A DNA stretch of 55,617 nucleotides. Origin: an uncultured Syntrophus sp. GTDB lineage: Bacteria > Desulfobacterota > Syntrophia > Syntrophales > UBA5619. Under the pieces are notes generated by a model that saw only the letters and a program-made list of their open reading frames with translations, searched no databases and had not been told where the DNA came from. Location of the stretch: assembly GCA_964540555.1 (NCBI GenBank), contig CAZINF010000003.1:1-55617 (forward strand). The letters run 5' to 3'. The translations under genes and the position numbers were made by a program. Below, piece after piece: positions 1 through 20,218 of this stretch; the stretch's first letter is position 1, and each line of letters starts with the position of its first letter.

Positions 1-136
1 TCCCGGAGACGGGTCCGATGCCGGGGAGCACCCCGACCAGCGTCCCGATGAAACAACCCACCAGGGCCCAGAAGAGATTCTGGAATGTCAGAGCGGTGGC
101 AAAGCCCTGGAAGAGATAGTCAAAGGAAAACCCCAT
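1..136 (-). CDS. tctA: TctA-family large permease of a tripartite tricarboxylate transporter, N-terminal fragment (gene runs off the window edge)
   Basis: Hand translation of the minus strand from the ATG at 136-134 gives [45 protein letters not shown]. This has the G-x-LPG-x-G N-terminal pattern also seen in the complete TctA at 23584-25122. It starts 9 nt after the tctB stop. Confidence 0.7.
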
Positions 137-145
137 GGTGACCCC

Positions 146-673
146 CTACTCAAACAGAAAACCCGAGGGGAAGGAGAGCCCCAGCAGGCGAATAAACAGA
201 ATGTATGAGACGACCGCGGTGATAAAGCTGATCACTATCGCCATCAGCCATTTTGACCGCTTCAGATACCAGATCGAAAAGGCGATGTAGGCAAATGTGG
301 CGAGCGGGAGCCCAAGCGGGTTCATAAGGGCGATGTAGCACCCCAGGCTCGCGAGCGTGACCAGGATCGTCCGGAACCCCTCCCCATCAGGCCATTTGAT
401 CGCGAGATCCGCCTCCCGTATGCTCCAGGATTTCAGGGCCAGTCCGCTTCCGCATATGAGGAGCAGGATGCCGACGGCCATGGGAAAGGTCCGGGGAGGC
501 AGGCGATGTGCGGCCCCTCCCGTGATGAACATCGACGCGGACATGATGAAAATGCCGAACAGGGCGATAAAACATCCCACGGCGATATCGGCAACTCTTT
601 GAGTCTTCACAACCACCTCCTGGTGCACTGAGTTTTTTCGAGGACGGCGCCTCCTGAGGTTTGAATCCGCCAT
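146..673 (-). CDS. tctB: TctB-family small membrane subunit of a tripartite tricarboxylate transporter
   Basis: 175-aa ORF with about four hydrophobic segments, lying immediately upstream of the TctA fragment. Size and topology match TctB. No tctC is adjacent. Confidence 0.6.
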   Translation of the reverse strand: MADSNLRRRRPRKNSVHQEVVVKTQRVADIAVGCFIALFGIFIMSASMFITGGAAHRLPPRTFPMAVGILLLICGSGLALKSWSIREADLAIKWPDGEGFRTILVTLASLGCYIALMNPLGLPLATFAYIAFSIWYLKRSKWLMAIVISFITAVVSYILFIRLLGLSFPSGFLFE

Positions 674-879
674 TGCTATGGCAGATCGACAACACTCGCC
701 CTAATCTCGCCAAGATGGGCAATATCAGCGACTGCGCATGTAGCATTAATTCAAGGTGATCGCAAGGATATTGCCAATTGCCAAAGGCAATGCTATTCGC
801 CTGTCCGGCAAGACGCCCCGTGCATTACAGCCTTGCCACGGCGCTCGCTCTCCAAGTCCGGCGATGACGCCGACGGTTT

Positions 880-2790
880 CTATGCCTCCTGCAGGAGCTT
901 TTCGACCAGTTTCACCCCGCCGCCGGCGTCGTGGGCGTAGCCGTCCGCGCCGATGTCGCGGGCATACTTCTCGTTCACCGGCGCGCCCCCGACCATCACC
1001 TTCACCACGTCGCGCAATCCCGCACCCGCCAGCGCCTCGATCACCTGCTTCATCTGCGGCATCGTCGTCGTCAACAGCGCGGACAAACCCAATATCTCCG
1101 GCCGAAACTCCTTCACCATCTGGACGAATTTAGCAACGGGCACATCGACGCCGAGATCCTTCACCTCGTACCCCACCCCCCGGAGCATCGTGATCACCAG
1201 GTTCTTCCCGATGTCGTGCATGTCGCCCTTCACCGTCCCGATCATCACCCGGCCTTTTGCCCCCGCCTGCCCGACCGTCAGGTAAGGCTCCAGCGCCGAT
1301 ACCGCCTCGTTCATCACCCGCGCCGACAAGAGCACCTCCGGGATGAACGCCTCCCCGCTCCGGAATCGCTCCCCGATCACCTCCATCGCCGAGAGCAACC
1401 CCCGCTGCAAGATGTCATCCGCCTTTGCCCCGCGCTCCAAGAGCTCAAGAATGTGCCCCCGAACCGATACCTGATCCCCGCCCAGAACGTCGTCCTGCAC
1501 CTGGCGGAACTGCTCATCCCTCTCCGGCTCAGCCGAACCACGTTTCTCTACCCCGCTCACCGCCGACGGCGTCACCGGGCGAAACGCACCCCCCTCCAGC
1601 GGCAGACGCCCCTCTTTTTCCACCCGCTCCCCGATCCGCACCAGTCTCTCGAAAACCGCCTGCGGGGGGGTAGTGTCGGCGATCCCCAGGATCATCCTCG
1701 TCCCCGGGGCCACCGCCTTGAACAGGTGGTCCAGGTACCCTTCGAACTCCTCGTCCGTCGTCGACTCCCGCAAGAGCAAGGTCGAGGGGATCCCCCCGAA
1801 GATCGTCAGCGTGTCCGCCCACCGGCGGTAATACTCCTCGATCGTCACCTTTGTCATCGGCGCCGGGCAGACCGCTTCGGCCACGTGCATCCCCGAGTCC
1901 CGGATCAGGTCCATCAACCCTTCGTTCTCTCCGTCGCAATGGCAAGAGACGTATTTCCCGCACGCCCCGAGACGCTCGGCAGCCCTGCGGATCCAGGGGA
2001 GAAGCTCTTTTTCAAAATAGGGGGGGTAGGTGATCATCTCATCGTAGTTTCCCCCCCAGTGGACCATTTCGGCGGGCGAGGCGGCGGTCAACTGCAGGCC
2101 CTTGTCGTAGAACGGCGCCATGCTCTCGGCCAGGCCCCGCATCTCTTTTTGATAATCGCTGTAATGAAAGTAAAACTCCGTGGCATCGAGAAACTGCTTC
2201 TGGATGTGGTGAATCGGCGAAGCGCAGCCGGTGAAGTATGCCGTCGCAATCCCGTCCTCGCCGATCTCCTGCTGCAGCCGCTCGAACTCTTCATAACGGG
2301 GAGCCAGGTCCGTGTTTTCGAACAGGCAGGCCACGATCGCGTAATCCTCACGCTTTTTGATGACTTTTTTGGCTATCCAGGGGATGGAGATGCCGGCCTT
2401 TTTCATCTCCTCGCTGTATACGGTGACGGTCCGCACCATCCCCTTGGGCGTATGGTATTCAACAGTTGTGCGCCCCTCTTCCCGCTGGATGCGGATCTCC
2501 ACCTTCGGCGAAAAAACGACGCGGACGACCTGCTCCCTGAGGGAGAAAATTCCCAGCGCGCGGTGGAGCATCGCGTCCGGTTCCGGTTGGTTGGCAAAAT
2601 CGGGAACGGCTTTGTGTAAAGCCCATCCCTCGGCGCGGCAGATCTGGTCCGGACTCTTCCCCCTGTGCCTCTCCGGCAGGGTATGGGCGAGGGCGTTGGC
2701 GTTGTGCCACAGATCCAGTCTCGGAACGTAGGGGAGGCGATCGGCCATCTCGCCTTGGATCGCCTTGAGGATTCGTTCTTTATGTGTCAT
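880..2790 (-). CDS. Bifunctional methyltransferase/corrinoid-binding protein (URO-D/MtaA-like barrel fused to a C-terminal cobalamin-binding domain; CmuA-like architecture), paralog 1
   Basis: 636-aa ORF. The N-terminal part resembles uroporphyrinogen-decarboxylase-fold methyltransferases (MTHKERILKAIQGEMADRLPYVPR, SCHCDGENEGLMDLIRDSGMHVAEAV). The C-terminal ~210 aa carry the B12-binding motifs DxHxxG (GDMHDIGKN), SxL (LGLSALL) and GG (MVGGAP). Confidence 0.8.
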   Translation of the reverse strand: MTHKERILKAIQGEMADRLPYVPRLDLWHNANALAHTLPERHRGKSPDQICRAEGWALHKAVPDFANQPEPDAMLHRALGIFSLREQVVRVVFSPKVEIRIQREEGRTTVEYHTPKGMVRTVTVYSEEMKKAGISIPWIAKKVIKKREDYAIVACLFENTDLAPRYEEFERLQQEIGEDGIATAYFTGCASPIHHIQKQFLDATEFYFHYSDYQKEMRGLAESMAPFYDKGLQLTAASPAEMVHWGGNYDEMITYPPYFEKELLPWIRRAAERLGACGKYVSCHCDGENEGLMDLIRDSGMHVAEAVCPAPMTKVTIEEYYRRWADTLTIFGGIPSTLLLRESTTDEEFEGYLDHLFKAVAPGTRMILGIADTTPPQAVFERLVRIGERVEKEGRLPLEGGAFRPVTPSAVSGVEKRGSAEPERDEQFRQVQDDVLGGDQVSVRGHILELLERGAKADDILQRGLLSAMEVIGERFRSGEAFIPEVLLSARVMNEAVSALEPYLTVGQAGAKGRVMIGTVKGDMHDIGKNLVITMLRGVGYEVKDLGVDVPVAKFVQMVKEFRPEILGLSALLTTTMPQMKQVIEALAGAGLRDVVKVMVGGAPVNEKYARDIGADGYAHDAGGGVKLVEKLLQEA

Positions 2791-2866
2791 TGGGAAAAGC
2801 CTCCTTCTGTCTGTTTGCCCCGTTTTGCCGCGCTAAAGACGGATAGGGTAAACGATCGACTGCAAA

Positions 2867-3853
2867 TCAGTTTACGGGATAATGGCAGCTCAGCCAATGA
2901 TCCGGTTCGATTTCAACAAACTCCGGCGCAACCCGTTCGCACTCCCCACGGCGATAGGGACAGCGGGGGTGAAAGACGCACCCCGAAGGGGGGTTGATCG
3001 GCGACGGGACGTCCCCGGGCAGGATGATCTTTTGTTTCAGGATCTTGGGATCCGGCATGGGGACGGACGAAAGCAGGGCCTCCGTGTAGGGATGGCGGGG
3101 CCGCTCGTAAATATTCCCGACCCCCGCCAGTTCCATCACCTTGCCCAGGTACATCACGGCCACCCGGTCGCTCATGTACTCCACCACGCGCAAATCGTGC
3201 GCAATGAACAGGTACGTGAGCTGGAACTCCTTCTGAAGATCCCGCAGCAGGTTGAGGACCTGCGCCTGGATCGATACATCGAGGGCCGATACCGGTTCGT
3301 CGGCGATGATCAGGCGGGGACGCAGGACAAGGGTGCGGGCGATGGCGATACGCTGGCGTTGTCCCCCGCTGAACTGGTGGGGATAGCGCTTCATGTCTTC
3401 CGGACGGAACCCCACCCGGGCAAGGACTTCCGCCACCCGGTCGCGAATCTCCCCCCGGGATCGGCACAGCTTGTGAATCCGCAGAGGCTCGGCGACGATC
3501 CGCTCTACACTCATCCGGGTGTCCAGGGCGGCGTAGGGGTCCTGAAAGATCACGGTCATCTTCTGTCTGAGCGGGTGCATCTCCGCATCGCTGAGGGCAA
3601 GGATGTCTTTCCCCTCGAACCGGACCCGGCCTGCCGTCGGTTCGATGAGCCTCAGCAGCATTCGTCCCACCGTGGTCTTGCCGCAACCGCTCTCCCCCAC
3701 CAGCCCCAGGACCTCGCCGGTATGAATCTTGAAGCTGACCCCGTCCACGGCATGGACGCACCCCACAGGCCGGGAAAAGACTCCTCCCCGGAGGGGAAAA
3801 TCTTTTTTCAGGTTCTCCACTTCGAGAAGCGGTTCGGTGCGATTAACAGACAT
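2867..3853 (-). CDS. ABC transporter ATP-binding protein, OppF/DppF type
   Basis: 328-aa ORF with Walker A (GESGCGKTT), the ABC signature (FSGGQRQR), Walker B (LIIADEP) and the Cys-rich oligopeptide-type C-terminal extension. Confidence 0.9.
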
Positions 3854-3918
3854 TTTCCACTCGTCGAGATATTTGGCAATCGCGATCCCTCAAGTTACAC
3901 AAAGGTCTCTTATCTCCC

Positions 3919-4911
3919 TTAAGTTCCATAGAGCCAGCAGGCCGCCTGGCGGCCGGAAGCGGGCACGAACAGGCCCGGGGTCTTTTCCCCGCAAACATCC
4001 ATCTTCCTGGAACAGCGCGGATGAAAGGGACAGCCCAACGGCATGTTCGTCAGTGCGGGAACCATCCCCTTGATCTCGCTCAGCCTCGATTTCTCCCGGA
4101 TGGCTCTGTCCGACGGGATGCTCCCCAGGAGCCCCAGGGTATAAGGGTGGCAGGGGTTTTCAAAAATATCGGCCACCGGCGCCTGCTCCACTATCCTTCC
4201 GGCATACATCACGATCACCCGGCGGGCGGTTTCGGCGATCACCCCCAGGTCATGGGTGATGAACATGATCGCCGTCCCGAATTTGCGCTTCAACTCATTC
4301 ATCAGCTCCAGGATCTGCGCCTGGATCGTCACATCCAGGGCGGTGGTCGGTTCGTCGGCGATCAGCAGACTGGGGTTGCAGGAGAGGGCCATGGCAATCA
4401 TCACCCGCTGACGCATCCCTCCGCTCATCTGGTGCGGATACTCGTGGAAACGCCGCTCCGGAGAGGCGATCCCCACTTCCCCCAGCATCGCCACCGCCCG
4501 TTCGCGGGTCGCGGACCGGGACAGGTCCTGATGCAGGCGGATCGCCTCGACGATCTGGTCTCCCACCGAATAGACCGGGTTAAGCGAGGTCATCGGTTCC
4601 TGGAAGATCATGCCGATTTCGCAGCCGCGGACGGAGCGCATCTCTCTGCCGGTGAGCGCTGTCAGCTCCCGCCCCTTGAACCAGATCCTTCCCCCCGCGA
4701 TCCGTCCGGGCGGGGACGGGAACAGCCGCATGATGGAGAGGGCGGTCACGCTCTTGCCGCAGCCCGATTCGCCCACCACCCCGAGGGTCTCTCCTCCCTG
4801 AATCTCAAAATCGATCCCGTCGACGGCCCTGGCCACCCCCCGAGCGGTATCGAAATAAGTTTTCAGCCCCTCTACCTTGAGAAAGACGGGCGGTTCACTC
4901 GTTTGGGTCAA
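3919..4911 (-). CDS. ABC transporter ATP-binding protein, OppD/DppD type
   Basis: 330-aa ORF with Walker A (GESGCGKS), the signature MSGGMRQR, Walker B (LLIADEPTT) and the C-terminal CPFHPRC motif. Confidence 0.9.
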
Positions 4912-4931
4912 CTATCGTCCTCCTGTCGTTT

Positions 4932-5879
4932 TCAGGTATGGCGGATTCGCGGGTCCAGAAAGGAGTAGCTGATGTCGGCCAGCAGGTTGAGAAAGGTCAC
5001 CGCCAGCGCCACCAGCAGCACCCCCGTCTGGAGCACAGGGAAGTCGTTGAAGAGGACCGCGTTCATGAGCAACCGGCCGATCCCCGGCAATGAAAAGACC
5101 ACCTCGATAATCACGATGCCGCCGATGAGACGGCCGATCCGCATCCCCAACAGGGTCACCACCGGAATGAGGGCGTTTCGCAGGACGTGACGGATGATCA
5201 CCTGGAACTCGGGAACCCCCTTGGCCCGCGCCGTCTGGACAAATTCCTCGTTGAGCACCTCCAGCATTGACGAACGGAGCTGCCGCATGATCTCCGCCGC
5301 AACCACCGAACCCAGGGAGATCGCCGGCAGGATCATGCCCTTGAGATTGCCGACCAGGTTTTCCCCTGGCGAGACATACCCCGACGAGGGAAGCCATCCC
5401 AGCCAGATCGAAAAGACCAGGATGAGGACCATCCCCAGGAAGAACTGCGGCATGGCGACGCCGCTCACGGCGATCACCGTTCCGGCGGTGTCCACCCAGG
5501 TGTTCGGACGGAGGGCGGAAAAGATCCCCATCGGAATCGCGATCAACAGGGCAAAGAGAATCCCCAGACCTAAAAGCTCCAGGGTAACGGGGAGCCTCTG
5601 GCCGAAGAGGGTCAGGACATGGACGCGGGTCCGGATGGAGATCCCGAAGTCGCCGCTGACGAGCGCCCCCAGCCATTTGAAGTACTGGACCACGATGGGT
5701 TTGTCCAGACCCAGCTCTTGACGGAGGTTCTGGATCATCGCCTCGCTGGCCCCTTCCGACCCGACAATAGAGAGCGACGGATCGCCCGGAAGCACCATGG
5801 AGAGGGTAAAGGAGATCAGGCTGACGACAAACAGCGTAATTAAGGTTTGCAAAATTCGTCTGATGAGAAAGGCTTTCAA
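4932..5879 (-). CDS. ABC transporter permease, OppB/DppB type
   Basis: 315-aa multi-TM ORF. The N-terminus MKAFLIRRILQTLITLFVVSLISF...LPGDP is typical of DppB/OppB permeases. Confidence 0.85.
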   Translation of the reverse strand: MKAFLIRRILQTLITLFVVSLISFTLSMVLPGDPSLSIVGSEGASEAMIQNLRQELGLDKPIVVQYFKWLGALVSGDFGISIRTRVHVLTLFGQRLPVTLELLGLGILFALLIAIPMGIFSALRPNTWVDTAGTVIAVSGVAMPQFFLGMVLILVFSIWLGWLPSSGYVSPGENLVGNLKGMILPAISLGSVVAAEIMRQLRSSMLEVLNEEFVQTARAKGVPEFQVIIRHVLRNALIPVVTLLGMRIGRLIGGIVIIEVVFSLPGIGRLLMNAVLFNDFPVLQTGVLLVALAVTFLNLLADISYSFLDPRIRHT

Positions 5880-5914
5880 TAGCGCTCCTTAACGCTGGAT
5901 CCCGTTTCTATGCA

Positions 5915-6742
5915 CTATGCACTTTGACTGAGCTGCTTGGGGTCGAGGATCAACCTCAGCCAGTCTCCGAGGACGGAGAAGGCGACAGTCGTCACATAGA
6001 TCCCCACCCCCGGCATCACCGAAAGCCAGGGGGCCCGTTCCAGCCATTTATAGCCCGTCTGGATCATAACCCCCCAGCTTGGGGTAGGCGGCTGGATCCC
6101 CACCCCCAAAAAGCTCAGGCTGCTTTCCAGGACGATCGCCGTTCCCACGGTGAGGGTGGCCTGAACGATGAGAGGCGCGGCCAGGTTGGGCAGCACATGG
6201 GTGAACAAAAGCCGGGCCGGCTTGCACCCAAAGGCCTTGGCAGCCATGATGAAGTCCCGCTCCAGGATCGAGAGGGCCTGGCCGTACACCAGCCGGGCGA
6301 ACAGCGGGCTGTAGACGACGGCGATGGCCACAATCACCGTCACGATACCCGGCCTCATGCTGGCCGAGAGGGCCAGCGCCAGGAGGATCATCGGAAAGGC
6401 CCAGATGGCGTCGACGATGCGCATGATGAGGGCCTGGATCGGTTTGAAATAGGCCGCCGCCAAACCCATCACCGTCCCCAGAAGGAGGGCGAAAAAAACA
6501 GAGACGAGGCCAACCACAAATGAGATCCGGGCCCCGGTCACGAAGCGGCTGAAAACGTCCCTGCCCAGATCGTCTGTCCCGAAGAGGTTCTTCCAACCGG
6601 GCGGATCCAGGGGCATAAACTGGACCGCCAGGGGATCGTATGGAGCGAGCCGGCTTTCCAGAATCGCAAAGACCGCCAGAATCAGCAGCGCCAGGATACT
6701 CAACCAGATCGATGCCCGCAGGGGAAATTTCATCTTCCTCAC
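5915..6742 (-). CDS. ABC transporter permease, OppC/DppC type
   Basis: 275-aa multi-TM ORF. The motif FGTDDLGRDVFSR is typical of DppC/OppC permeases. It sits before the B-type permease, an unusual order. Confidence 0.85.
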   Translation of the reverse strand: MRKMKFPLRASIWLSILALLILAVFAILESRLAPYDPLAVQFMPLDPPGWKNLFGTDDLGRDVFSRFVTGARISFVVGLVSVFFALLLGTVMGLAAAYFKPIQALIMRIVDAIWAFPMILLALALSASMRPGIVTVIVAIAVVYSPLFARLVYGQALSILERDFIMAAKAFGCKPARLLFTHVLPNLAAPLIVQATLTVGTAIVLESSLSFLGVGIQPPTPSWGVMIQTGYKWLERAPWLSVMPGVGIYVTTVAFSVLGDWLRLILDPKQLSQSA

Positions 6743-6805
6743 CAGAGAAAACAGCAGGGAAGGCGTCCTTCGATGCTCCCTGAATCACCTTCCCATCCCG
6801 CAGGA

Positions 6806-8383
6806 TCAGGCCAACCAGACCTCGCTTCCCACCAGCGAGCGCCAGTTGTTCCGCAACCCTTTGACTTTTTTGTGCGTCCCCGCGGCATGGGTAAGGGCTG
6901 TCGCAGAAGTGAGGAGCGCCTGATCGTAGACGATCTTGAGCGCCCCCTTCATCAGTTCGTGGCGTTTCGCCTCGCTGGAGGCCTCATTGTGTTCGTCGAG
7001 GATCCGGTCGAGCTGGGGTACGGAGATGTTGGACCAGTTCCCGGGCTCCTTGCTGGCAAGTCTAAACCGGTTGAAGCCGCCGATGTTGGTCGCCGCCTGC
7101 CAGAATCCGATCTCGAAGTCGTCCTTCTTCATGCTCTGGATCCACTCCAGACGCTCGGTCGCCTTCAGTTCCGTCTTGATCCCCACCGCATCCCACATCG
7201 CTTTGAGGAGTTCGCCGTAGGTGGTATCCGGCTCCCGGGAGATGACCGAGACACGGACCGTCACCCCCTTGGGATAGGCGGCATTGACCAGCTCTTTGGC
7301 CTTCTGGGGATTGTAGGTGTAATCGGGCCAGTCCTTGGGCGACCAGCCGGGCTGTCCCTGCGCGATATAGGGGTACTGGTGGGGGCGGGAGACGCCGAAA
7401 CCGGTGATCTTGGCAAAGCGGACCCGGTCGATCGCATAGCAGCAGGCGCGGCGCAGCTCCAGGCTGGTGAAAGGCCCCTTGCGCGGGTTGAACCCGCAGC
7501 ACACGTCCTGAAACTCGAAGGGGGGCATCTCTATATAGAGGAGGTCGGGGCTCTCCTTGATCCTGGAAACCTCGCGAGGGGGAGGGAAATGGACGGTGTC
7601 CAGCCCGCCGGAACGGAGGTCCAGAACCGCCTGGTCGATCTTCGGCCGGTAGTGCTCTTCCATCCCGTCCAGGTAGGGAAGGGCCTTGCCGTCGACCCCC
7701 TGCTTCCAGTAGTCGGGAAACCGCTCCATGACGACCTTCTCGTCAACGATCCAGTTCTTGTAGCGGAAGGCCCCGGTGCCGCAGCCTTTGCGGGCCAGCT
7801 CGTCGTCGCCGTGTTTTTCCTGGAAGCTCTTCGAAACCATTCCCGCCTGGCCACGGGCGGTGGAGAGGGTATAGATCAGACCCGCCGAAGGGTGCTTCAG
7901 GTTGATGGAGATCGTCTGTTCGTTGAGCACATCGACGCTCTCGATCTCTTTGAGATCCTGGGCCAGGAAAGATTTGGGATGCAGGCGCAGCCGGTCGAGG
8001 TTCCATTTGGCCGCCGCCGCGTCGAGCCTGCTGCCGTCGTGGAATTGAACCCCTTTGCGGAGGGTGAAGAGCAGCCGCTTGTCGCTCTTCTCCGCACGCC
8101 ACTCGGTGGCCAAGCTGGGGACCAGTTTGAATTCGGAGGTTTTCGGATCGATGATCACATCGACGAGGCAGTCGTACATCCCTCCGATGCAGGTGAAGGT
8201 CTCGCTGACCCGATGGGCGTCCAGACTGGGAGTGGTACGGTTCCGGGCATAGCGCCAGATACCGCCCCGTTTCACCGGTTCGGCGGCCCAGGTTGAAATG
8301 AACGGGCTCCCCGCGAAGGCCAGCGCCGCGGTCCCCACGACCGTTCCCTTGACAAACTCCCTTCTGGTCAATCCTTTCGACAT
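6806..8383 (-). CDS. ABC transporter substrate-binding protein, family 5 (Opp/Dpp/Nik type), with twin-arginine-like signal peptide
   Basis: 525-aa ORF with the leader MSKGLTRREFVKGTVVGTAALAFAG. Length and sequence are typical of SBP_bac_5 proteins. It is the first gene of the transporter block. Confidence 0.85.
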   Translation of the reverse strand: MSKGLTRREFVKGTVVGTAALAFAGSPFISTWAAEPVKRGGIWRYARNRTTPSLDAHRVSETFTCIGGMYDCLVDVIIDPKTSEFKLVPSLATEWRAEKSDKRLLFTLRKGVQFHDGSRLDAAAAKWNLDRLRLHPKSFLAQDLKEIESVDVLNEQTISINLKHPSAGLIYTLSTARGQAGMVSKSFQEKHGDDELARKGCGTGAFRYKNWIVDEKVVMERFPDYWKQGVDGKALPYLDGMEEHYRPKIDQAVLDLRSGGLDTVHFPPPREVSRIKESPDLLYIEMPPFEFQDVCCGFNPRKGPFTSLELRRACCYAIDRVRFAKITGFGVSRPHQYPYIAQGQPGWSPKDWPDYTYNPQKAKELVNAAYPKGVTVRVSVISREPDTTYGELLKAMWDAVGIKTELKATERLEWIQSMKKDDFEIGFWQAATNIGGFNRFRLASKEPGNWSNISVPQLDRILDEHNEASSEAKRHELMKGALKIVYDQALLTSATALTHAAGTHKKVKGLRNNWRSLVGSEVWLA

Positions 8384-8430
8384 GGCATCCTCCTTGTTGA
8401 CTTCTTTTTGTCATTCCGTGCTTGACTAAG

Positions 8431-8512
8431 CCTGCCCCGGACCTGATCCGGGGAATCCAGTGAGTGCAATGGGTTCTGGACCCCGGCGCCTGCCCCGGAC
8501 ACCGATCCGGGG
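8431..8512 (-). repeat. Two tandem copies of a ~24-nt hairpin-forming unit (CCTGCCCCGGA-N5/6-TCCGGGG), REP-like intergenic element
   Basis: Copy 1 at 8431-8453 is cctgccccggacctgatccgggg. Copy 2 at 8489-8512 is cctgccccggacaccgatccgggg. Each has a 7-bp stem CCCCGGA/TCCGGGG. They lie between paralog 2 and the SBP gene. Confidence 0.6.
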
Positions 8513-8609
8513 TCCACCGGAGTGACGGGTTTACGTGGCCGTCAATCCTGTCCTTTTCTCATTTCGCAGTGGAGGAGCCCCGGCCTCCATTGTCGAGACG
8601 CTCGAATCC

Positions 8610-10526
8610 TCAGTTCTCTCTCCCCAGGAGTTTCCCAACCAGTTTCACCCCGCCGCCGGCGTCATGGGCGTAGCCGTCGGCGCCGATGTCCCGGGCGTAC
8701 TTCTCGTTCACCGGCGCGCCCCCGACGATCACCTTCACTCCGTCGCCCAATCCCGAACTTCTGAGAGCCTCGATCACCTGTTTCATCTGCGGCATCGTTG
8801 TCGTCAACAGCGAAGACAAACCCAATATCTCCGGCTGAAACTCCTTCACCATCTCGACGAATTTAGCGACCGGCACATCCACGCCGAGATCCTTCACCTC
8901 GTACCCCACCCCCCGGAGCATCGTGATCACCAGGTTCTTCCCGATGTCGTGCATGTCGCCCTTCACCGTCCCGATCATCACCCGGCCTTTTGCCCCCGCC
9001 TGCCCGACCGTCAGGTAAGGCTCCAGCGCCGATACCGCCTCGTTCATCACCCGCGCCGACAAGAGCACCTCCGGGATGAACGCCTCCCCGCTCCGGAATC
9101 GCTCCCCGATCACCTCCATCGCCGAGAGCAACCCCCGCTGCAAGATGTCATCCGCCTTTGCCCCGCGCTCCAAGAGCTCAAGAATGTGCCCCCGAACCGA
9201 TACCTGATCCCCGCCCAGAACGTCGTCCTGCACCTGGCGGAACTGCTCATCCCTCTCCGGCTCAGCCGAACCACGTTTCTCTACCCCGCTCACCGCCGAC
9301 GGCGTCACCGGGCGAAACGCACCCCCCTCCAGCGGCAGACGCCCCTCTTTTTCCACCCGCTCCCCGATCCGCACCAGTCTCTCGAAAACCGCCTGCGGGG
9401 GGGTAGTGTCGGCGATCCCCAGGATCATCCTCGTCCCCGGGGCCACCGCCTTGAACAGGTGGTCCAGGTACCCTTCGAACTCCTCGTCCGTCGTCGACTC
9501 CCGCAAGAGCAAGGTCGAGGGGATCCCCCCGAAGATCGTCAGCGTGTCCGCCCACCGGCGGTAATACTCCTCGATCGTCACCTTTGTCATCGGCGCCGGG
9601 CAGACCGCTTCGGCCACGTGCATCCCCGAATCCCGGATCAGGTCCATCAACCCCTCGTTCTCCCCGTCGCAATGGCAGGAGACGTATTTCCCGCACGCCC
9701 CGAGACGCTCGGAGGCCTTGCGAATCCAGGGGACGATCTCCTTTGCAAAGAAGCTGGGATAGGTGATCATCTCATCGAAGTTGCCTCCCCAGAAAATCAC
9801 CTCCGCCGGCGAGGCGGCAATCTGGTCGATGATCTGGTCGAAAAAATTCCCGACGCTGGAGGCAAGGGCCTGCATCTGCCGGGCATAGTCGTGGTAGTGG
9901 TAATAGAAATCGGTAGCGTCGATGAAATATTTCTGAATGTGATTCATCGGCGAGGCGGCCCGCGTCGCCGTGGAAAAGGCCACACCGTCCTCTCCGATAT
10001 CGGCCCGCCATTTGACGAAGTCCGCCGCGTCGGGGAAGAGCGTGAGGTTCTCGAATATATACCCGACGACGGGGTAATCCTTGGCATCCTTGAGGACCGG
10101 TTCGGTAACCCAGAAAGCGGAGACGCCCGATCGCCTCATCTCCTCGGTATAGGCGATCGTGGTACTCACCGAACCGCGGGGGGTATGGTAATGGATCCTC
10201 GTCCGGTCGCCTTCCCGCTTAACCTCGATATCGACATCCGATGAAAACCGGAAACCGTAGACCATCTCTTTGTAAGAGAGGATCCCAAGCGCCCAGTGCA
10301 GGTTGTCTTCGGGCTTGCGGGGTTTCTGGTATTCAGGGTTGATCTTGTGCAAAGCCCACCCCTCGGTCCGGGCGATTTGATCGGGAGTGCTGTCATTATA
10401 ACGAGGAGGGAGGGTGCCGGCCTGGGCGTTGGCCGAATGCCAGAGGTCCAGGCGGGGCGCAAAAGCGAGGCGGTCGGCCATCTCGCCCCGGATCGCCTTG
10501 AGGATTCGTTCTTTGTGGGTCATCAT
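8610..10526 (-). CDS. Bifunctional methyltransferase/corrinoid-binding protein (URO-D/MtaA-like barrel plus cobalamin-binding domain), paralog 2
   Basis: 638-aa ORF with the same architecture and motifs as 880-2790. The C-terminal ~370 aa are nearly identical to paralog 1, and the N-terminal ~265 aa are only about half identical. Confidence 0.8.
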   Translation of the reverse strand: MMTHKERILKAIRGEMADRLAFAPRLDLWHSANAQAGTLPPRYNDSTPDQIARTEGWALHKINPEYQKPRKPEDNLHWALGILSYKEMVYGFRFSSDVDIEVKREGDRTRIHYHTPRGSVSTTIAYTEEMRRSGVSAFWVTEPVLKDAKDYPVVGYIFENLTLFPDAADFVKWRADIGEDGVAFSTATRAASPMNHIQKYFIDATDFYYHYHDYARQMQALASSVGNFFDQIIDQIAASPAEVIFWGGNFDEMITYPSFFAKEIVPWIRKASERLGACGKYVSCHCDGENEGLMDLIRDSGMHVAEAVCPAPMTKVTIEEYYRRWADTLTIFGGIPSTLLLRESTTDEEFEGYLDHLFKAVAPGTRMILGIADTTPPQAVFERLVRIGERVEKEGRLPLEGGAFRPVTPSAVSGVEKRGSAEPERDEQFRQVQDDVLGGDQVSVRGHILELLERGAKADDILQRGLLSAMEVIGERFRSGEAFIPEVLLSARVMNEAVSALEPYLTVGQAGAKGRVMIGTVKGDMHDIGKNLVITMLRGVGYEVKDLGVDVPVAKFVEMVKEFQPEILGLSSLLTTTMPQMKQVIEALRSSGLGDGVKVIVGGAPVNEKYARDIGADGYAHDAGGGVKLVGKLLGREN

Positions 10527-10634
10527 CCGTTTATCCTTGGTCTTTTGCCTGAAAAGGGAAATATCACTAATCTAAAGGGTTATCAACAACGACCTCTTTC
10601 TTTGCAACCCCTAAGATTTCTGGCGTCGCATTTC

Positions 10635-11237
10635 TCAACTCGCTTTGGGTAGATACATATGTGGAGTCGGGTAGGAAATAAAGGCGCCCGATATCCAGCC
10701 GATGATCATAAAAATAACGATGGCCGCGATGACCACCGCAACCGTGTACCCTAACGATTTCTCTTTTGGGGCTTTCATGAGAATGGGAATCCCTGTGTAG
10801 AGCAGATATAAGCTGTACAGGCCTAAGATCATGAGCATGCTCAGGGGGGGGATGACGACAAAAATCCCGGATAACCATCCGGCAGTATAGGAATATGCGG
10901 CCAGCTTGAGAGCCTGGTTCAGGTTCTTCTCACCGGCAAATTTCGGAGCGAGGAAGTCAATAATCAGAGCCAGGATGTACACGCCAATCAGTCCAAATAC
11001 ATATTGTACGACAGCAGAACCAATGGCGCTTGCAATCGGAATTCTGAATGTTGCCGTAAACGGCATACTGATGCCTATAAGCGACATCCCGATGATGGAG
11101 GCCACCGGTCCGATCGCTGCCAACGGCATGATATAGCTTCTATATAACTCTGAAGTCGTTGTGGTTTCGGCGGCAATGACCCCCCACTCGATTTTGGGTT
11201 GCAGCAATATCTTTTTGATGCGATCGACGATATTCAT
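10635..11237 (-). CDS. Yip1-family integral membrane protein
   Basis: 200-aa ORF with five predicted TM segments and an N-terminus ([19 protein letters not shown]) typical of Yip1/DUF1282-type proteins. Its start overlaps the htpX-like stop by 4 nt. Confidence 0.65.
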
Positions 11238-11836
11238 TTTTTGTCCTCCTTTATCAATTCAGTTCTCATCTTCATCAATCTTTCAATTCTCTTTTCAAGC
11301 GGCGGGTGCGTGCTGAATAAATTCATGATCGTTCCGCCGGAGAGAGGATTGACAATAAATATATGTGCCGTAGAGGGATTTGCATCCATAGGTCTTATCG
11401 TTGCCGCTTTTGACAGCTTTGCAAGGGCGCTTGCCAATGCTTCGGGCTTTCCGGATACCCTGGCGCCGCCGGCATCGGCATCGTATTCCCTGGATCGGGA
11501 TATGGCCATCTGGATGACTGTTGCCGCTATGGGTGCGATAATCGCAACCGCGATTGCGCTGATTGCATTTCCCTCCTCGCCGGAGCCGAAAAACATGGCC
11601 CACCGGGACAGCAGAACGACGGCAGTGGCGATGGTTGCCGTCATGGTGCTGATCAGAATGTCTTTATTTTTTATATGGGATAGCTCGTGAGCGACGACTC
11701 CTTCCAATTCGTCCCTGCTCAGGATTCTCAGGATCCCCGTTGTAAAAGCCACCGCCGCATGATCCTCGTTTCTTCCCGTTGCGAATGCATTAGGCGATTC
11801 CTTTGAAATAATATAAAAACCTCTACAAAGAGCCAC
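11234..11836 (-). CDS. htpX: M48 zinc metalloprotease HtpX homolog, N-terminally truncated (possible gene remnant)
   Basis: It has the HExxH site ([10 protein letters not shown]), the downstream REYDADAGG motif and the C-terminal [14 protein letters not shown], all HtpX-like. It begins with a GTG at the ...SPNAFATG region, so the ~85 N-terminal residues (TM1-TM2) are absent. An in-frame stop at 11840-11842 and the stop of the preceding gene at 11845 leave no room for them. Confidence 0.6.
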
Positions 11837-11844
11837 CGGTTATG

Positions 11845-12714
11845 TCAAGGAGATTCTGCTGACGGAGCGCATTGCCCGCCTCCAGCAACGGGGTGTCCGA
11901 GATGCGAAAGGACCCTGGCACTGAAAAGACCGGGCTGTTCCGCGACGGGAACGTGCAGGCTTTCCGGGATCGACACAACGGTCAGATTTCGGAAGTACAT
12001 GTGGGCGGTTTCCCTAAACACGCTTATGGGTTTGAAGTTCCGCCCTCCTTCGACATAGATCGTGGGAACATCGGTCCGGAAATGCTCGTGATACAGGGGG
12101 CGGTATCTCTTATCGAAGCGGTTGACGGCCCTGATAAAATCGATCGCGGTCCTGGCGGAGGTGCGGTGGAAACCCTCCTCGATGTAACGCATCCCATCGC
12201 CGTCCCCGGCAACCCGTGTTGTGAGAAGGCTGTTGAGAAAACGGAAGCCTTTCGTGCTGTTCAACAGCAGTTTAAAGAGCAGGACATTCAGATGGGGAAT
12301 CAGCAGTAGATGAAGATACCAGGGCATGAAGGCATACATCTCGATGAGCACCAGCCGATTGACGAGTCCCGGGTAACGCCGAAGCAGCTCCATGGCGATG
12401 TTGCCGCCCAGGCAGTTGCCGACAAGCGTCACGGGAGGATGGCCCATCGCGAGGATAAAATTCCTTCCAATCTCAACGAGCGCTTCGATCGAGACATCCG
12501 GCAGGGGAGGACTATTCCCGTAACCCGGCCAGGCCGGTCTGTAAACGGTATAGTGGCGAGCGAATGCGGCGTGACAGGGACCGAAGGTGTCTTCATTGCC
12601 TATCCAGCCGTGGAAAAAGACGAGAGGGGGTCCGGCGCCGCTTTTTTTATAGGAGATGGCGGTCCGGTTAATAAAGACCGACGATGAGGTCTCTTTGAGG
12701 TCATTGGGCGTCAT
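11845..12714 (-). CDS. Alpha/beta-fold hydrolase with Cys at the nucleophile elbow (G-N-C-L-G)
   Basis: It has the oxyanion HG (VFFHGWIG) and the nucleophile elbow LVGNCLGGNIA. The start is placed at the ATG at 12714, which forms an ATGA overlap with the upstream stop. The ORF track's longer start is at 12762. Confidence 0.65.
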   Translation of the reverse strand: MTPNDLKETSSSVFINRTAISYKKSGAGPPLVFFHGWIGNEDTFGPCHAAFARHYTVYRPAWPGYGNSPPLPDVSIEALVEIGRNFILAMGHPPVTLVGNCLGGNIAMELLRRYPGLVNRLVLIEMYAFMPWYLHLLLIPHLNVLLFKLLLNSTKGFRFLNSLLTTRVAGDGDGMRYIEEGFHRTSARTAIDFIRAVNRFDKRYRPLYHEHFRTDVPTIYVEGGRNFKPISVFRETAHMYFRNLTVVSIPESLHVPVAEQPGLFSARVLSHLGHPVAGGGQCAPSAESP

Positions 12715-13628
12715 GGCGCGTACCCTCTTTCCGACATATAGGTCCTGACCTGAGCCTTCCATTCTTCATACTGACGGGATGTATGATGTTTCCGCATATG
12801 ATCGTCCCACTGTTTTGCATGGTAGATCAGATTATCCACCAGGGCCGGCAGGGCAATCTCGGTCACTTTGTTGACGATCCCCATGAAAGAGGACAGGTTG
12901 CCTCCGGGGTTGCTGTCCACGTAATAGATACAGTCGGTTTTAAGGAGATCTTCCTTGCGTTTGATAAACTCCTTCGACAGCGGCGACAGGCGCCAGCTTC
13001 CTTCGTTTCTCGCGGTGCTGATGGCTTCCGCTCGATACTTTTCCATCTCTGGGTTGAGCTTATCCTGGCAGTGCATTTGTGGTTCCTGCGACCATTTGCT
13101 CTCCCAGGGGAAGGCAATGCGATTTGCGGACCGTTTCAGTGTATACTGACGAGGCGCTATCAGGGGCATGACGAGAAGCTGGTACAGATACCGGCCATTC
13201 TCGCAGGCGGAGGAATCAAAGACATAGGGCATGAATGTCCGCCTTTTGTCCGTTAACGAACCATTCTTTGGGTACTGCGGCGATACCATGCTGAAATGGT
13301 GGATGTCGGTAATGATATGCCAGGTCGTCGGGGGATCGACGGGGAGAAAGATCCGCATGTAACCCGCCTTGAAACCGCCGGGTGAGTCCAGCAGCCGGGT
13401 TACGGGTTTTCCCGAGGAAAGAAGCGCCAGGTCCGCTTCATTGAGCGAGATCTCCGGGATGTTCTGCATAAGCGGACGATCCGGCCGGACATCGAAACCG
13501 ATGACCGAACCTGCACTGTCCGCTTCAACTCGCGAGAGAGGCAGCAACAGGCAAGTCAAAAGGAAAGGAATGCATAAGAAAGGGATGATGTGCAATTCAC
13601 TTACCCATGTAATTTTCCGAGCAACCAT
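12711..13628 (-). CDS. Hypothetical exported protein (signal peptide; no family recognised with confidence)
   Basis: 305-aa ORF with a hydrophobic leader (IIPFLCIPFLLTCLLLPLSRVEA). It is translationally coupled to the downstream hydrolase. Confidence 0.5.
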   Translation of the reverse strand: MVARKITWVSELHIIPFLCIPFLLTCLLLPLSRVEADSAGSVIGFDVRPDRPLMQNIPEISLNEADLALLSSGKPVTRLLDSPGGFKAGYMRIFLPVDPPTTWHIITDIHHFSMVSPQYPKNGSLTDKRRTFMPYVFDSSACENGRYLYQLLVMPLIAPRQYTLKRSANRIAFPWESKWSQEPQMHCQDKLNPEMEKYRAEAISTARNEGSWRLSPLSKEFIKRKEDLLKTDCIYYVDSNPGGNLSSFMGIVNKVTEIALPALVDNLIYHAKQWDDHMRKHHTSRQYEEWKAQVRTYMSERGYAP

Positions 13629-14167
13629 GCCATCCTCTGCCCGAGTGATTTCACCAGTTCGATCCCCTCGGCGTCCTTTTCCACCTCGCCTTTTGCCCTG
13701 CCGACGCCGATCGCCCGCCCGACAATGATGATTTCGCCGCTCAGAAAGAAGTGGTCCATGGTGTCCAGCGTGTGGATCGCGCCGGATCGACGCATAGTCA
13801 CCACCGACGCACCGACCTTCTTTTTAAACATCCTTCCGTTGGACCTGGAGACGTAACCGCAGCGATCGATCAGGGCCTTCATCTCGGATGTCACATCCTG
13901 AAAATAGGAGGGCGAGCCGAGGATGATCCCGTCCGCGCCGAGCATCTTCTCGATATACTCGTTGGCGGCGTCATTTTTGACTGCACAACGCCGGTCCTTG
14001 GTCTCACCGCATTTTTCACAGGCGATGCAGCCGTGGATCTCTTTTTCCGAGAGCTGCACCAATTCGGTGTCGATCCCCTGTTTTTCGAGTTCGTCGAAGA
14101 CATGTCTGATAAGAACAGTGGTATTGCCGTCCCTTCTCGGGCTTCCGTTAAACGCAACGACCTTCAT
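13601..14167 (-). CDS. Flavodoxin-fold NADPH-dependent FMN reductase / iron-sulfur flavoprotein-like protein
   Basis: 188-aa ORF. MKVVAFNGSPRRDGNT is the FMN-reductase N-terminal motif, and there is a Cys cluster CIACEKCGETKDRRC as in Isf-type proteins. Confidence 0.75.
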   Translation of the reverse strand: MKVVAFNGSPRRDGNTTVLIRHVFDELEKQGIDTELVQLSEKEIHGCIACEKCGETKDRRCAVKNDAANEYIEKMLGADGIILGSPSYFQDVTSEMKALIDRCGYVSRSNGRMFKKKVGASVVTMRRSGAIHTLDTMDHFFLSGEIIIVGRAIGVGRAKGEVEKDAEGIELVKSLGQRMAWLLGKLHG

Positions 14168-14266
14168 GTGATGATCCTCCTTCTATTTCAGGTGTTTCTC
14201 GAAAAAACCCTTCACCCGGATGATCGAATCCGCTTCGGCCTCCGGATGGTGCTCGATACGATGCAT

Positions 14267-15031
14267 TCACTCATTCTTCACTTTTCCGACTGGCGCCATG
14301 TAAATGGCAAATTCATCAATGCCGTCGATTCTCAGCAACCGGTCCATCGCTTCCTGGTCATAAGCGGCGATGGCGCAGGTCCCGGCGCCGATCGCCTCGC
14401 AGGCCAGGTAGAGATTCTGGCAGACATGTCCGGCGTCGATGGCGATCACTTTATGCGCCGCCAGATCATAGCGCCATTCCATGCGGTAGGGCACCGCGGT
14501 CCAGATAAAGGTCACCGCTGCTATTCCCGGATAGGGTTGATCGAAAACGGCTTCTACGATCTTTTCATGGAGGCGATCTTCCGTGAATTCGAAAAGGAGT
14601 TGATGCTCCAATGGCAGATAACGGTACACTCCCGTTTCCAGGCTCTCGACGTTTAAAACACAGAGATAGGTTTCCAGCGCATGGCGACAGCCAGCGGAAG
14701 GAACGGTTCGATAGGCATGCCCACGATCGATTCGACCGCGAATGCCCTGGGTTGCCCAAAGAAGGAAAGCGAGCTCATCCATCGTGATGCGTCGGTTTAA
14801 AAAGGTCCTGTGACTCCTTCGGTTTCTGATCGCCTCCGCAAGGCTGATATTCGAAATCCCTTTCCCGGCATGAACCTTCGAAAGGTCTATTTTGACGGCC
14901 TTGTCGGGGACGGGCTTTTCGATCGGCGGCGGATCGCACCCCCGGTTTTGATCTGTCTTTGAGAAATCGATCCGCTTCCGAATCGTATCCTTGAGGAAGA
15001 ATCTGTATTGCTGCATGAGGGGATTGTTCAT
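14267..15031 (-). CDS. SagB/ThcOx-type nitroreductase-family dehydrogenase
   Basis: It has the nitroreductase signature (IRNRRSHRTF) and a C-terminal ...CQNLYLACEAIGAGTCAIAAY region. The start is placed at the MNNPLMQQ methionine; the ORF track's longer start is at 15091. Confidence 0.65.
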   Translation of the reverse strand: MNNPLMQQYRFFLKDTIRKRIDFSKTDQNRGCDPPPIEKPVPDKAVKIDLSKVHAGKGISNISLAEAIRNRRSHRTFLNRRITMDELAFLLWATQGIRGRIDRGHAYRTVPSAGCRHALETYLCVLNVESLETGVYRYLPLEHQLLFEFTEDRLHEKIVEAVFDQPYPGIAAVTFIWTAVPYRMEWRYDLAAHKVIAIDAGHVCQNLYLACEAIGAGTCAIAAYDQEAMDRLLRIDGIDEFAIYMAPVGKVKNE

Positions 15032-15056
15032 TTTTACTCCGAGTTTCCATGAATTT

Positions 15057-15431
15057 CTACAGAATGATATTGCTTCCCCCCGAAGCTGCACCGCCCGGAA
15101 CGATCAGTCGGGACTGTTCCTGCCGCTGCATTTCTTTGGCCTGTTCGACCAGGTGCGCCACGAACTCCTCCATGGCCTCCGAGAATTTTTCCATCGCCAG
15201 TTGAAGATTCTTGGCGTCGATAGGGAACTGGATGGGCATGGGGCCTTGCTGCGTATAGACTTGCGACTGCCCTACAAAAAAAACCGCGCGGTTTTTATCC
15301 GGCTCTCCGTTCGGTTTGACCGGCGTCAACCGGCGGATGGAACCAACTGTGAGATCGCTGAATACCTCTTCCCGATGAAGATTTTGCTGATTGAATCTGA
15401 CTTTCTTCTCTTTTCCTTCTGAGTCTGTCAT
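15057..15431 (-). CDS. Hypothetical cytoplasmic protein
   Basis: 124-aa ORF that fills the gap cleanly at the head of the minus-strand gene string. No family recognised. Confidence 0.4.
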   Translation of the reverse strand: MTDSEGKEKKVRFNQQNLHREEVFSDLTVGSIRRLTPVKPNGEPDKNRAVFFVGQSQVYTQQGPMPIQFPIDAKNLQLAMEKFSEAMEEFVAHLVEQAKEMQRQEQSRLIVPGGAASGGSNIIL

Positions 15432-15656
15432 GGTGTCCTCCCGAGTTAAGATCGGACATCATAACCCGCTTTTCGTTCTTTTCCAACTGTTATCATAGGG
15501 AATGTCAACGACCGGGGAATCCTGTCTTGACAAGACCCCGGACTTCGGCCATATCGTATTCCAATTTCCATTGAGGAGGCCTCTACGGCAGAAGACACCA
15601 CCCCCGACTTAACCACCGGAAGCCTGTGGCTCAACATCTGGCAGCTTTCGTGGCCG

Positions 15657-16949: not shown

Positions 16950-17124
16950 GACTACCGGGAAAGTCTCTCCTTGAAGGGCGCCGTCGACGATCTTTTCCGG
17001 AAATTGGAGGCGGTGAAGCCCGGTGATTTAAAAACCAGCGGCGGCCACCTCCATTATTGCGGTCATAAAGGCATTACATCGCCCTGCTATTCGAGAATGC
17101 AAGGTAGGACGTCGTCATTGACAC

Positions 17125-17517: not shown

Positions 17518-17537
17518 AAACCTGACGGGACATCATT

Positions 17538-18350: not shown

Positions 18351-18364
18351 TTCGTCTCTCCCGA

Positions 18365-19118: not shown

Positions 19119-19126
<8 letters not shown>
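18365..19126 (-). CDS. Short-chain dehydrogenase/reductase (KduD/FabG-like)
   Basis: It has the TGAARGIGRAIA cofactor motif, NNAA, and the catalytic S...YxxxK (YCLSK). Confidence 0.85.
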
Positions 19127-20216
<1,090 letters not shown>

Positions 20217-20218
20217 AT

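Follow-up and report, generated by a model that had tools for sequence, protein, structure and literature searches.

We analysed a stretch of 55,617 nucleotides (nt) from an uncultured Syntrophus sp. (contig CAZINF010000003.1; the whole stretch is called the window hereafter), in which two genes for a methyltransferase fused to a corrinoid-binding (B12) domain, par1 and par2, enclose an Opp/Dpp-type ATP-binding cassette (ABC) importer. Region 1-10587 is likely to represent a catabolic import-plus-demethylation module, which would need a methyltransferase for the second half-reaction (MT2) and an activase that are both encoded elsewhere. Each fusion protein combines a candidate substrate:corrinoid methyltransferase (MT1) with its corrinoid carrier. 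The seven open reading frames (ORFs) on the minus strand have exactly the coordinates and the order given in an earlier note on this DNA (Table 1).

The earlier note had proposed a dedicated uptake system feeding the methyltransferases, and a functional link of this kind is supported by recurrent linkage, by varied gene arrangements and by differing flanks in other genomes. The importer comprises the complete component set of the Opp/Dpp/Nik type: a family-5 solute-binding protein (SBP; SBP_bac_5), two BPD_transp_1 permeases (C and B) and two oligo_HPY ATPases (D and F). Its SBP belongs to a distinct clade, in which identity decreases from 90% to about 44% and then falls to 37%. We found that the fusion gene, or its unfused equivalent, adjoins an SBP of this clade (52-90% identity) on 9 of the 11 contigs examined, the window itself being one of them. 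The arrangement of the window, fusion-SBP-C-B-D-F-fusion, recurs in L098 (SBP 90% identical) and in L088 (SBP ~87%; 88% nucleotide identity); the earlier note had suggested looking for this neighborhood in relatives, and elsewhere other arrangements are seen. The order is SBP-C-B-D-F-fusion in L095 (76%), and in L089 (70%) the fusion is followed after a 15-nt spacer by SBP-C-B-D-F. L097 (61%) carries unfused genes for a uroporphyrinogen decarboxylase (URO-D)-type protein and a corrinoid protein, interleaved with the permease genes. On the contig of P0164 (52%) SBP-C-B-D-F-fusion is followed by genes for an M20 peptidase, a D-Ser-dehydratase-like enzyme and an OCD-family enzyme. In L096 (GCA_041643175.1, 359-17259; SBPs 78-89%) the order is fusion-SBP-SBP-C-B-fusion-SBP-D-F-fusion-SBP, i.e. 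three fusions (one par2-type, two par1-type) and four SBP paralogs occur with a single permease/ATPase set. For the eleventh contig linkage was deduced from the SBP P0136 and the fusion P0072 each lying on a 7,666-bp contig. Since the flanking genes vary among the linked contigs, the linkage is not merely inherited local synteny.

The earlier note knew of no coupling between corrinoid methyl-transfer systems and family-5 ABC importers. Coupling to importers turned out to be the norm in this enzyme family, usually with tripartite ATP-independent periplasmic (TRAP) transporters. Among 44 more distant genome loci (46-61% identity) the TRAP component DctM was found at 27, a PhyH dioxygenase at 15, a separate URO-D methyltransferase at 14 and a pterin-binding protein at 10, and none of the 44 carried an SBP of the window clade. 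A recurrent order at these loci is fusion, DctP-Q-M, corrinoid protein, URO-D protein, pterin-binding protein. The nearest orthologues of par1 adjoin TctBAC, a tripartite tricarboxylate-type transporter (TTT), as par1 itself does: the synteny fusion-TctB-TctA-TctC is present in L083-L085, and around the par1 orthologue P0006 the order is flavin mononucleotide (FMN) reductase, fusion, TctB-TctA-TctC. Judged from these gene neighborhoods, the family as a whole is characterised by its association with solute importers, the class of transporter being interchangeable.

Beside the Opp operon of L091, which has no methyltransferase, lies a PhyH gene (18899-19729), the product of which is 52-55% identical to the PhyH proteins of L008, L014, L020, L032 and L034. 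These are located about 4-7 kb from fusion-plus-TRAP loci. Substrates of the same class may thus have a second, oxygen-dependent route, of which this link would be a sign.

Adjacency does not necessarily imply shared function, and the Opp system might import peptides, glutathione, nickel/cobalt or a metallophore, having been placed next to the fusion genes by recombination between the paralogs. This would fit the best NCBIfam matches of the importer (Opp5A_nikA 99 bits, GsiB 98 bits, Opp2B 325 bits) and the visible integration of the cassette by recombination within a resident fusion gene (see below). It would also fit the SBP orthologues that occur without a methyltransferase in L090 (62%) and L091 (57%), and a supply of cobalt would suit a corrinoid enzyme. 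However, the SBP scores far below the cut-offs of all named equivalogs compared (NikA, GsiB, DppA, OppA and CntA; e.g. Opp5A_nikA 99 bits vs. 600, DppA 67 vs. 1005), and its best sequence match in the PDB is the uncharacterised 5u4o. An Rfam search of the window matched neither a cobalamin riboswitch nor any other element, the hairpins described below included. Further arguments against coincidental adjacency come from the linkage itself, seen on 9 of the 11 contigs amid varying flanks and gene orders, from the unfused genes interleaved with permeases in L097, from the four SBPs and three fusions round one translocator in L096, and from the TRAP or TTT importers that accompany other members of this enzyme family. 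We therefore regard such adjacency as unlikely.

The N-terminal part of both fusion proteins had been described in the earlier note as a URO-D-type barrel, and its proposal was said to fail without this fold. At the level of fold the assignment stands, the URO-D fold having been found with AlphaFold2, Foldseek and a family profile; sequence alone did not carry it, as the Pfam model PF01208 gave 19-21 bits for par1 (cut-off 23.9) and no match for par2. Since PF01208 was insufficient, a structure model and a family profile were needed for the assignment of the window proteins. The AlphaFold2 model of par1 has a predicted local distance difference test score of 79.7 for the full protein and of 86.5 for residues 1-400 (predicted template modelling (TM) score 0.86). 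Foldseek searches with the full-length model were swamped by the B12 domain, and the N-terminal domain was therefore modelled separately. All of the top 23 Foldseek matches of this model are URO-D proteins or MtaA (E 5e-10 to 2e-6, TM 0.47-0.65), with uroporphyrinogen decarboxylases and MtaA of Methanosarcina mazei, a methylcobalamin:CoM methyltransferase, at E 5e-10 to 5e-9 and TM 0.55-0.65. In the model a TIM barrel is seen, to which a beta-meander is added at residues ~89-141.

The family is large. The domain profile, searched against 1.84 billion cluster representatives, returned 252 clusters (50% identity) at E<1e-30 and 2142 at E<1e-3, and many of the members found are standalone proteins of ~395 amino acids (aa). 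GTDB species-representative genomes contain at least 569 matching stretches, including those that match in the B12 domain only; among the best 80 loci about 40 are full-length fusions. PF01208 was matched by 29 of 29 diverse family members (E<=0.01; best 8e-16), and many homologues carry a precomputed PF01208 assignment. The window proteins appear to belong to a distinct URO-D clade that is weak against this model. A family profile, built from fused and standalone members, was compared with solved structures and found its best match in CdmB of Acetobacterium dehalogenans (44 bits, E 1.1e-10); MtaA gave 19 bits (E 3e-3) and CmuA 21.8 bits (E 6e-4). CdmB is a chloromethane:corrinoid MT1 from the O-demethylase branch of the UroD superfamily (PMC13222342). 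With a narrower profile of 14 sequences the CdmB match in the PDB was non-significant (E 0.47), and it became significant once standalone relatives were added. By this remote similarity the N-terminal domain would be nearer to the characterised MT1s than to MT2s. H284-x-D286, E305 and D372 are conserved family-wide, C283 and C285 in the close clade only. In the alignment with CdmB, H284 and D286 lie opposite a Phe and a Gly of the CdmB pocket, so that the substrate pocket is probably polar and not a haloalkane tunnel.

In the C-terminal carrier of each paralog Pfam finds B12-binding_2 and B12-binding domains, and the motifs are intact as the earlier note had described them (D523-x-H525-x-x-G528, S570-x-L572 and G601-G602); these residues are invariant across 38 homologues, except L572, which is conserved in >=90%. 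The carrier is of the MtgC/MtbC type (183-223 bits, NCBIfam), and comparison with solved structures and MttC gave E 7.5e-54 for 1y80 and E 5e-43 for MttC. H525 would be the cobalt ligand, with the cofactor bound base-off/His-on.

In the proposed mechanism the SBP, exported by the twin-arginine translocation (Tat) pathway, and the OppCBDF-type translocator would import one or several small organic solutes that carry methyl groups; TctBAC, encoded just downstream, may also deliver a methylated solute. The URO-D barrel of par1 or par2 would bind the methyl donor and present it to Co(I) on the tethered B12 domain. Co(I) would take the methyl group to give CH3-Co(III) on the carrier, which is joined to the barrel by a flexible linker of ~30 residues. 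We infer that CH3-Co(III) is unloaded to tetrahydrofolate (THF) by a pterin-binding MT2, and oxidised Co(II) would be repaired by a reductive activase, both encoded outside the window. In agreement with the earlier note, neither an MT2 nor a separate corrinoid protein was detected in the 55.6 kb (the larger ORFs were searched with Pfam, and tblastn was run with URO-D, pterin-binding and corrinoid-protein queries). No Pfam match of the kind expected for a RamA/RACE activase was seen in the larger ORFs scanned, a dedicated search for it not being part of the analysis.

The earlier note had called the methyltransferases self-contained, which is unlikely, since in relatives genes for a pterin-binding MT2, for a further URO-D methyltransferase and corrinoid protein and for a methylene-THF reductase lie beside the fusion. 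A pterin-binding MT2 (NF005719, 303 bits vs. cut-off 259) is encoded directly upstream of an 86%-identical par2 orthologue in L086. In L032 the order is fusion, DctPQM, corrinoid protein, URO-D protein, methylene-THF reductase, pterin-binding protein. By analogy with these relatives the window system most likely relies on partners encoded elsewhere. The L032 operon (5700-21300) is from a metagenome-assembled genome (MAG) of the Burkholderiaceae; it begins with genes for a PhyH dioxygenase, two PanB-like ketopantoate hydroxymethyltransferase homologues, GntR, the fusion and a 283-aa protein, and the genes listed above from DctPQM onwards are followed at its end by an amidohydrolase gene. Such a gene set would seem to cover the whole way from methyl to methylene-THF, and the lineage is not one commonly associated with corrinoid demethylation.

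Methyl transfer could also run in the opposite direction, with the URO-D domain acting like an MT2 and moving the methyl group from CH3-Co(III) to an imported acceptor, e.g. a thiol; the system would then serve methylation or methyl-thiol metabolism, in the manner of MtaA/MtsA-type enzymes or the Mts fusions. The fold also matches MtaA (4ay7, E 2-5e-9), the close clade has C283-H284-C285 at a barrel-strand end, where MtaA-type enzymes bind zinc, and corrinoid systems can run towards methylation, as in the case of an estrogen methyltransferase (PMC7448270). The two cysteines are not conserved in the family, though, where only H284-x-D286 is retained, and the family profile favours the MT1 CdmB over MtaA. 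In relatives the role of an MT2 would be filled by the separate MtaA-like URO-D protein and the pterin-binding MT2 beside the fusion, and the methylene-THF reductase in the L032 operon fits an oxidation of harvested methyl groups. We consider this reverse role slightly less probable again than coincidental adjacency.

The two paralogs are mosaics, a feature absent from the earlier note, as is the 749-nt perfect direct repeat they share (copies 7733 nt apart, flanks 60-87% identical). Over the first 240 aa par1 and par2 are 52% identical, over the remainder 84-100%. Each paralog is 84-89% identical to its own subfamily within the first 240 residues; in total par1 is 85-89% identical to P0002-P0006, and par2 86-89% to P0013, P0015 and L096_a676. 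Residues 283-556 are 100% identical between par1 and par2 in the window and 84-92% between the subfamilies in relatives. L096, an independent assembly, has the same mosaic at the nucleotide level (60% vs. 84-85%), while the pattern was not found in the paralog pairs of Burkholderiales. The 749-nt tract itself is either a recent gene conversion or an assembly collapse, in which the consensus was borrowed from one copy.

Comparison with L083 indicates how the locus was assembled. Window and L083 are syntenic for MatE and FMN reductase, for 60 nt upstream of par2, and again for par1, TctB and the start of TctA, and the par2-Opp segment lies at a place where L083 has one uninterrupted fusion gene. 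Recombination of a fusion-Opp-fusion cassette with a resident fusion gene would give such a structure, and cassettes of this kind are found in other contexts in L088 and L096. From the sequence divergence, which lies mainly in the N-terminal module, and from the multiplication of SBPs together with fusions in L096, the paralogs would most likely serve two donors, or two methyl groups of one donor.

The earlier note had considered as an alternative that one paralog loads the cofactor and the other unloads it, so that one would move methyl groups from substrate to corrinoid and the other from corrinoid to acceptor. The bracketing of the transporter by two paralogs and the lack of an MT2 in the window could be explained in this way. 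Such a division of labour is contradicted by the modules with a single fusion (L089, L095, P0164 contig, L083) and by the common catalytic half of the paralogs, whose barrel is identical there and diverges in the N-terminal 240 aa. In addition, each paralog has a complete B12 domain, paralog number rises with SBP number in L096, and a dedicated pterin-binding MT2 adjoins the par2 orthologue, which makes this alternative very improbable.

The earlier note had called the proteins CmuA-like. For comparison we used cmuA of pCMU01; CmuA/CmuB systems were compared for Methylorubrum extorquens CM4 and Hyphomicrobium chloromethanicum. The domain order is indeed the same, with the methyltransferase N-terminal and followed by B12 cap and Rossmann domain (Pfam, AlphaFold2), but homology of the methyltransferase domains was not detectable. 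In BLASTP of CmuA against par1 only the B12 domains align (33% identity), and hhalign, run on the two methyltransferase domains as profile against sequence, gave a probability of 5.7%. CmuA scores 456 bits with TIGR01463 (cut-off 235 bits), while the N-terminal domain of the window proteins has no NCBIfam match at E<=0.01, and tblastn of this domain against all plasmids including pCMU01 gave no match. At the cobalt-ligand site CmuA has GNTQDIGKN with Gln, the window proteins GDMHDIGKN with His525 retained. Based on the common B12 domain only, the failure of TIGR01463 and the retained His, membership in the CmuA family was rejected. In a further likeness, relatives of the window proteins have a separate pterin-binding MT2 for THF, comparable to CmuB, and methylene-THF reductase genes nearby, whereas the ties to solute importers are not a CmuA feature.

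How the fusion arose is suggested by L097, where a standalone methyltransferase of 402 aa (49% identical over 399 aa, par1 residues 1-398) is directly followed by a corrinoid protein of 228 aa (53% identical to the par1 C-terminus), the unfused pair being located inside an Opp operon of the same SBP clade. Given these adjacent unfused genes, the window fusion is derived from neighboring MT1 and carrier genes, independently of CmuA. That par1 and par2 are nevertheless true CmuA-type halomethane dehalogenases, for which the domain order and the action of the closest solved relative CdmB on chloromethane (PMC13222342) could be cited, is highly improbable in view of the CmuA comparison above and of the polar H284 and D286 in place of Phe and Gly in CdmB, and a gas requires no binding-protein-dependent importer.

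As substrate we would guess at best an O-methyl (ether) compound with a carboxylate group, or else a compound resembling a methylated amino acid or peptide. By analogy, the TTT and TRAP partners would point to carboxylates, whilst ether-type methyl groups are suggested by the remote affinity to CdmB and the O-demethylases. In two relatives the neighbors (M20 peptidase, pyridoxal-phosphate (PLP) enzymes, OCD family) fit the idea of an amino-acid or peptide derivative, which the earlier note had raised; at other loci sugar-acid-type neighbors occur. Further neighbors elsewhere include genes for ILVD_EDD dehydratase, NIPSNAP, aldolase, creatininase-family proteins, PfkB kinase, PhyH dioxygenases, and Iso_dh together with a thioesterase, and these contexts are too varied to name one substrate.

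Several observations weigh against an import-plus-demethylation module. The similarity to CdmB is remote, with 44 bits and coverage of the C-terminal two-thirds of the barrel only. SBP and permeases score best on nickel-, glutathione- and peptide-type models, all below the cut-offs, and in L090 and L091 an SBP orthologue occurs without a methyltransferase nearby. An assembly artefact could underlie the 749-nt identical tract. The ORFs scanned in the window include no MT2, activase (for which no dedicated search was made) or THF-pathway gene, so that the second half-reaction rests on relatives. The 226-nt spacer between par2 and the SBP gene with its two hairpins could separate transcription units, co-transcription being presumed. 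Finally, literature searches gave no biochemical datum for any family member.

Table 1. Features of region 1-10587 and their positions in the window.
Feature	Position	Strand	Remarks
par2	8610..10526	-	638-aa fusion of par2-type subfamily; predicted URO-D-fold MT1-type methyltransferase, linker, B12 cap, B12 Rossmann domain
Two hairpins	8435..8512	-	near-identical, GC-rich; inside 226-nt par2-SBP spacer 8384-8609
Family-5 periplasmic SBP	6806..8383	-	SBP_bac_5 206 bits; twin-arginine leader TRREFVK
OppC-type permease	5915..6742	-	BPD_transp_1; Opp4C/Opp2C-like, below cut-off
OppB-type permease	4932..5879	-	BPD_transp_1_N and BPD_transp_1; Opp2B 325 bits vs. cut-off 350
OppD-type ATPase	3919..4911	-	ABC_tran and oligo_HPY
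OppF-type ATPase	2867..3853	-	ABC_tran and oligo_HPY
par1	880..2790	-	636-aa fusion (predicted MT1::corrinoid) of par1-type subfamily; starts 76 nt past OppF-like stop
par1, methyltransferase domain	1606-2790	-	residues ~1-395
par1, disordered linker		-	residues 396-424
par1, B12 cap and Rossmann domain	883-1518	-	residues 425-636
Identical tract, 749 nt (par1)	1148..1896		barrel second half, linker, cap, part of Rossmann domain
Identical tract, partner copy (par2)	8881..9629
TctB	146..673	-	small membrane subunit of tripartite tricarboxylate-type transporter; PF07331; 206 nt downstream of par1
TctA, 5' end	1..136	-	runs off window; translation equals start of L083 TctA; DNA match 85%
par2 5' flank	10527..10587	-	homologous to 5' flank of L083 single fusion gene; marks recombination junction

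The module extends beyond par1 into TctB and the 5' end of TctA, which the earlier note had not mentioned. Details of the importer given there were correct: the C-type permease precedes the B-type permease, as Pfam finds BPD_transp_1_N only in the second one, the binding protein matches SBP_bac_5, and its leader MSKGLTRREFVK has the classical twin-arginine motif (TIGR01409 16.4 bits, slightly below the cut-off of 16.7). The two hairpins in the spacer are likewise present by sequence and fold, CCCCGGATCGGTGTCCGGGG at 8512-8493 and CCCCGGATCAGGTCCGGGG at 8453-8435, with CCCCGGATC...CCGGGGCAGGC in common. The spacer measures ~58 nt in L088 and 15 nt in L089, both of which lack the hairpins; a lineage-specific insertion of ~170 nt holds them in the window and may be a small inserted repeat element. 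As a terminator or a repeated element the hairpins were rejected, since they lack a U-tail, have a fold z-score of only -1.4 and have no other copy in the window.

Among named homologues, the one nearest to par1 comes from a Syntrophales MAG. Across the module (1-10000) the G+C content is 0.60-0.62; it falls to 0.52-0.55 in 10001-16000 just upstream, where genes for Yip1, an M48 peptidase, a hydrolase, an FMN reductase and a nitroreductase are located. GC skew is strongly negative (~-0.16) in the two sequence intervals with most of the paralog genes. A tRNA search of the whole window found none. A second TTT system (TctC 21912-22922, TctA 23443-25122) lies among genes for an SDR, a GH88-like hydrolase, an old-yellow-enzyme-type flavoprotein and a GFO/IDH/MocA oxidoreductase (17500-26400), followed by a GHMP kinase and a nucleotidyltransferase (28124-30059), which together suggest uronate or sugar-acid metabolism near the module. 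Genes for a CoA-transferase, an enoyl-CoA hydratase, an FAA-hydrolase-family protein, a zinc alcohol dehydrogenase and a tungsten-type aldehyde:ferredoxin oxidoreductase (30939-37434) fit an anaerobic degrader of organic acids or aromatic compounds. On the minus strand at 39450-42932 a 1160-aa ORF with an N6 DNA methylase domain and a Type ISP C-terminal specificity domain probably encodes a single-chain Type ISP restriction-modification enzyme; two ORFs beside it (43189-45100) have no Pfam match.

Corrinoid methyltransferase systems govern the entry of methoxylated, methylated and halogenated compounds into one-carbon metabolism in anoxic habitats. We tentatively put forward, as a possibility rather than an expectation, that the window represents a widespread class of importer-coupled corrinoid demethylases, in which an exchangeable N-terminal specificity cassette of 240 residues sits on a barrel-plus-B12 chassis and diversifies together with SBP paralogs. 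If so, methyl groups would be harvested from non-classical donors, e.g. O-methylated amino-acid, peptide-like or sugar-acid compounds, for which we know of no anaerobic demethylase, and the family would be active in strict anaerobes (Syntrophales, Desulfobacterota) as well as in Burkholderiales. From the mosaic structure of the paralogs, an exchangeable N-terminal module may be what determines substrate specificity. Because the genes are embedded in transporter operons, the matching SBPs offer a direct experimental handle on the substrates. Members from Burkholderiales beside methylene-THF reductase and PanB-like genes hint at B12-dependent methyl harvesting outside strict anaerobes.

The searchable literature yielded no account of this fusion family, whose members are annotated in the sources only as cobalamin-binding proteins. 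To our knowledge CmuA is the only natural MT1::carrier fusion that has been characterised, and the present family would be a second, independent one, much larger than that of CmuA. MtsD, MtsF and MtsH of Methanosarcina acetivorans are also natural fusions of a corrinoid domain and a URO-D-type methyltransferase, of the MtaA/MtsA type and acting on methyl sulfides with coenzyme M as acceptor; their corrinoid domain is N-terminal, whereas in the window proteins the order is reversed (Pfam). Artificial fusions had to be engineered for O-demethylation biocatalysis (PMC9930637). Four further systems were compared and are unrelated: the mlp clusters of Firmicutes (PMC10418091), the Bathyarchaeia-specific MtgB of ~300 aa (PMC10989822), the MtmB-like estrogen methyltransferase EmtAB (PMC7448270) and the MttB-type glycine betaine system MtgBCD (PMC12478193).

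Among Opp/Dpp/Nik importers the window SBP matches 5u4o, AgaA, DppA and YliB (E 1e-38 to 1e-23). The opine-binding AgaA and AccA are members of this family, and the window has the same SBP-C-B-D-F set. In contrast to these importers, the window SBP clade is specifically linked to corrinoid methyltransferase genes, and in L096 the SBPs multiply along with methyltransferase paralogs. With the three-component corrinoid systems of the UroD superfamily for O-demethylation and haloalkanes (CdmBCA, MtvABC, OdmABCD, VdmABCD and MtoABCD) the window system likewise has in common a URO-D-fold MT1, an MtbC/MtgC-type carrier and the expectation of a pterin-type MT2 and an ATP-dependent activase, and extensions of the N-terminal barrel likely define the substrate site, as described for CdmB (PMC13222342). 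In the window, however, MT1 and carrier are fused and the genes lie inside transporter operons; the family has a conserved H-x-D and Glu where CdmB is hydrophobic, and its hosts are Desulfobacterota/Syntrophales and Burkholderiales, whereas those of the three-component systems are acetogens of the Bacillota. The system is thus of a known kind, a corrinoid MT1/carrier system; new are the independently evolved fusion, the distinct URO-D clade, the modular paralogs and the regular placement of the genes within importer operons, in the window with a family-5 ABC importer.

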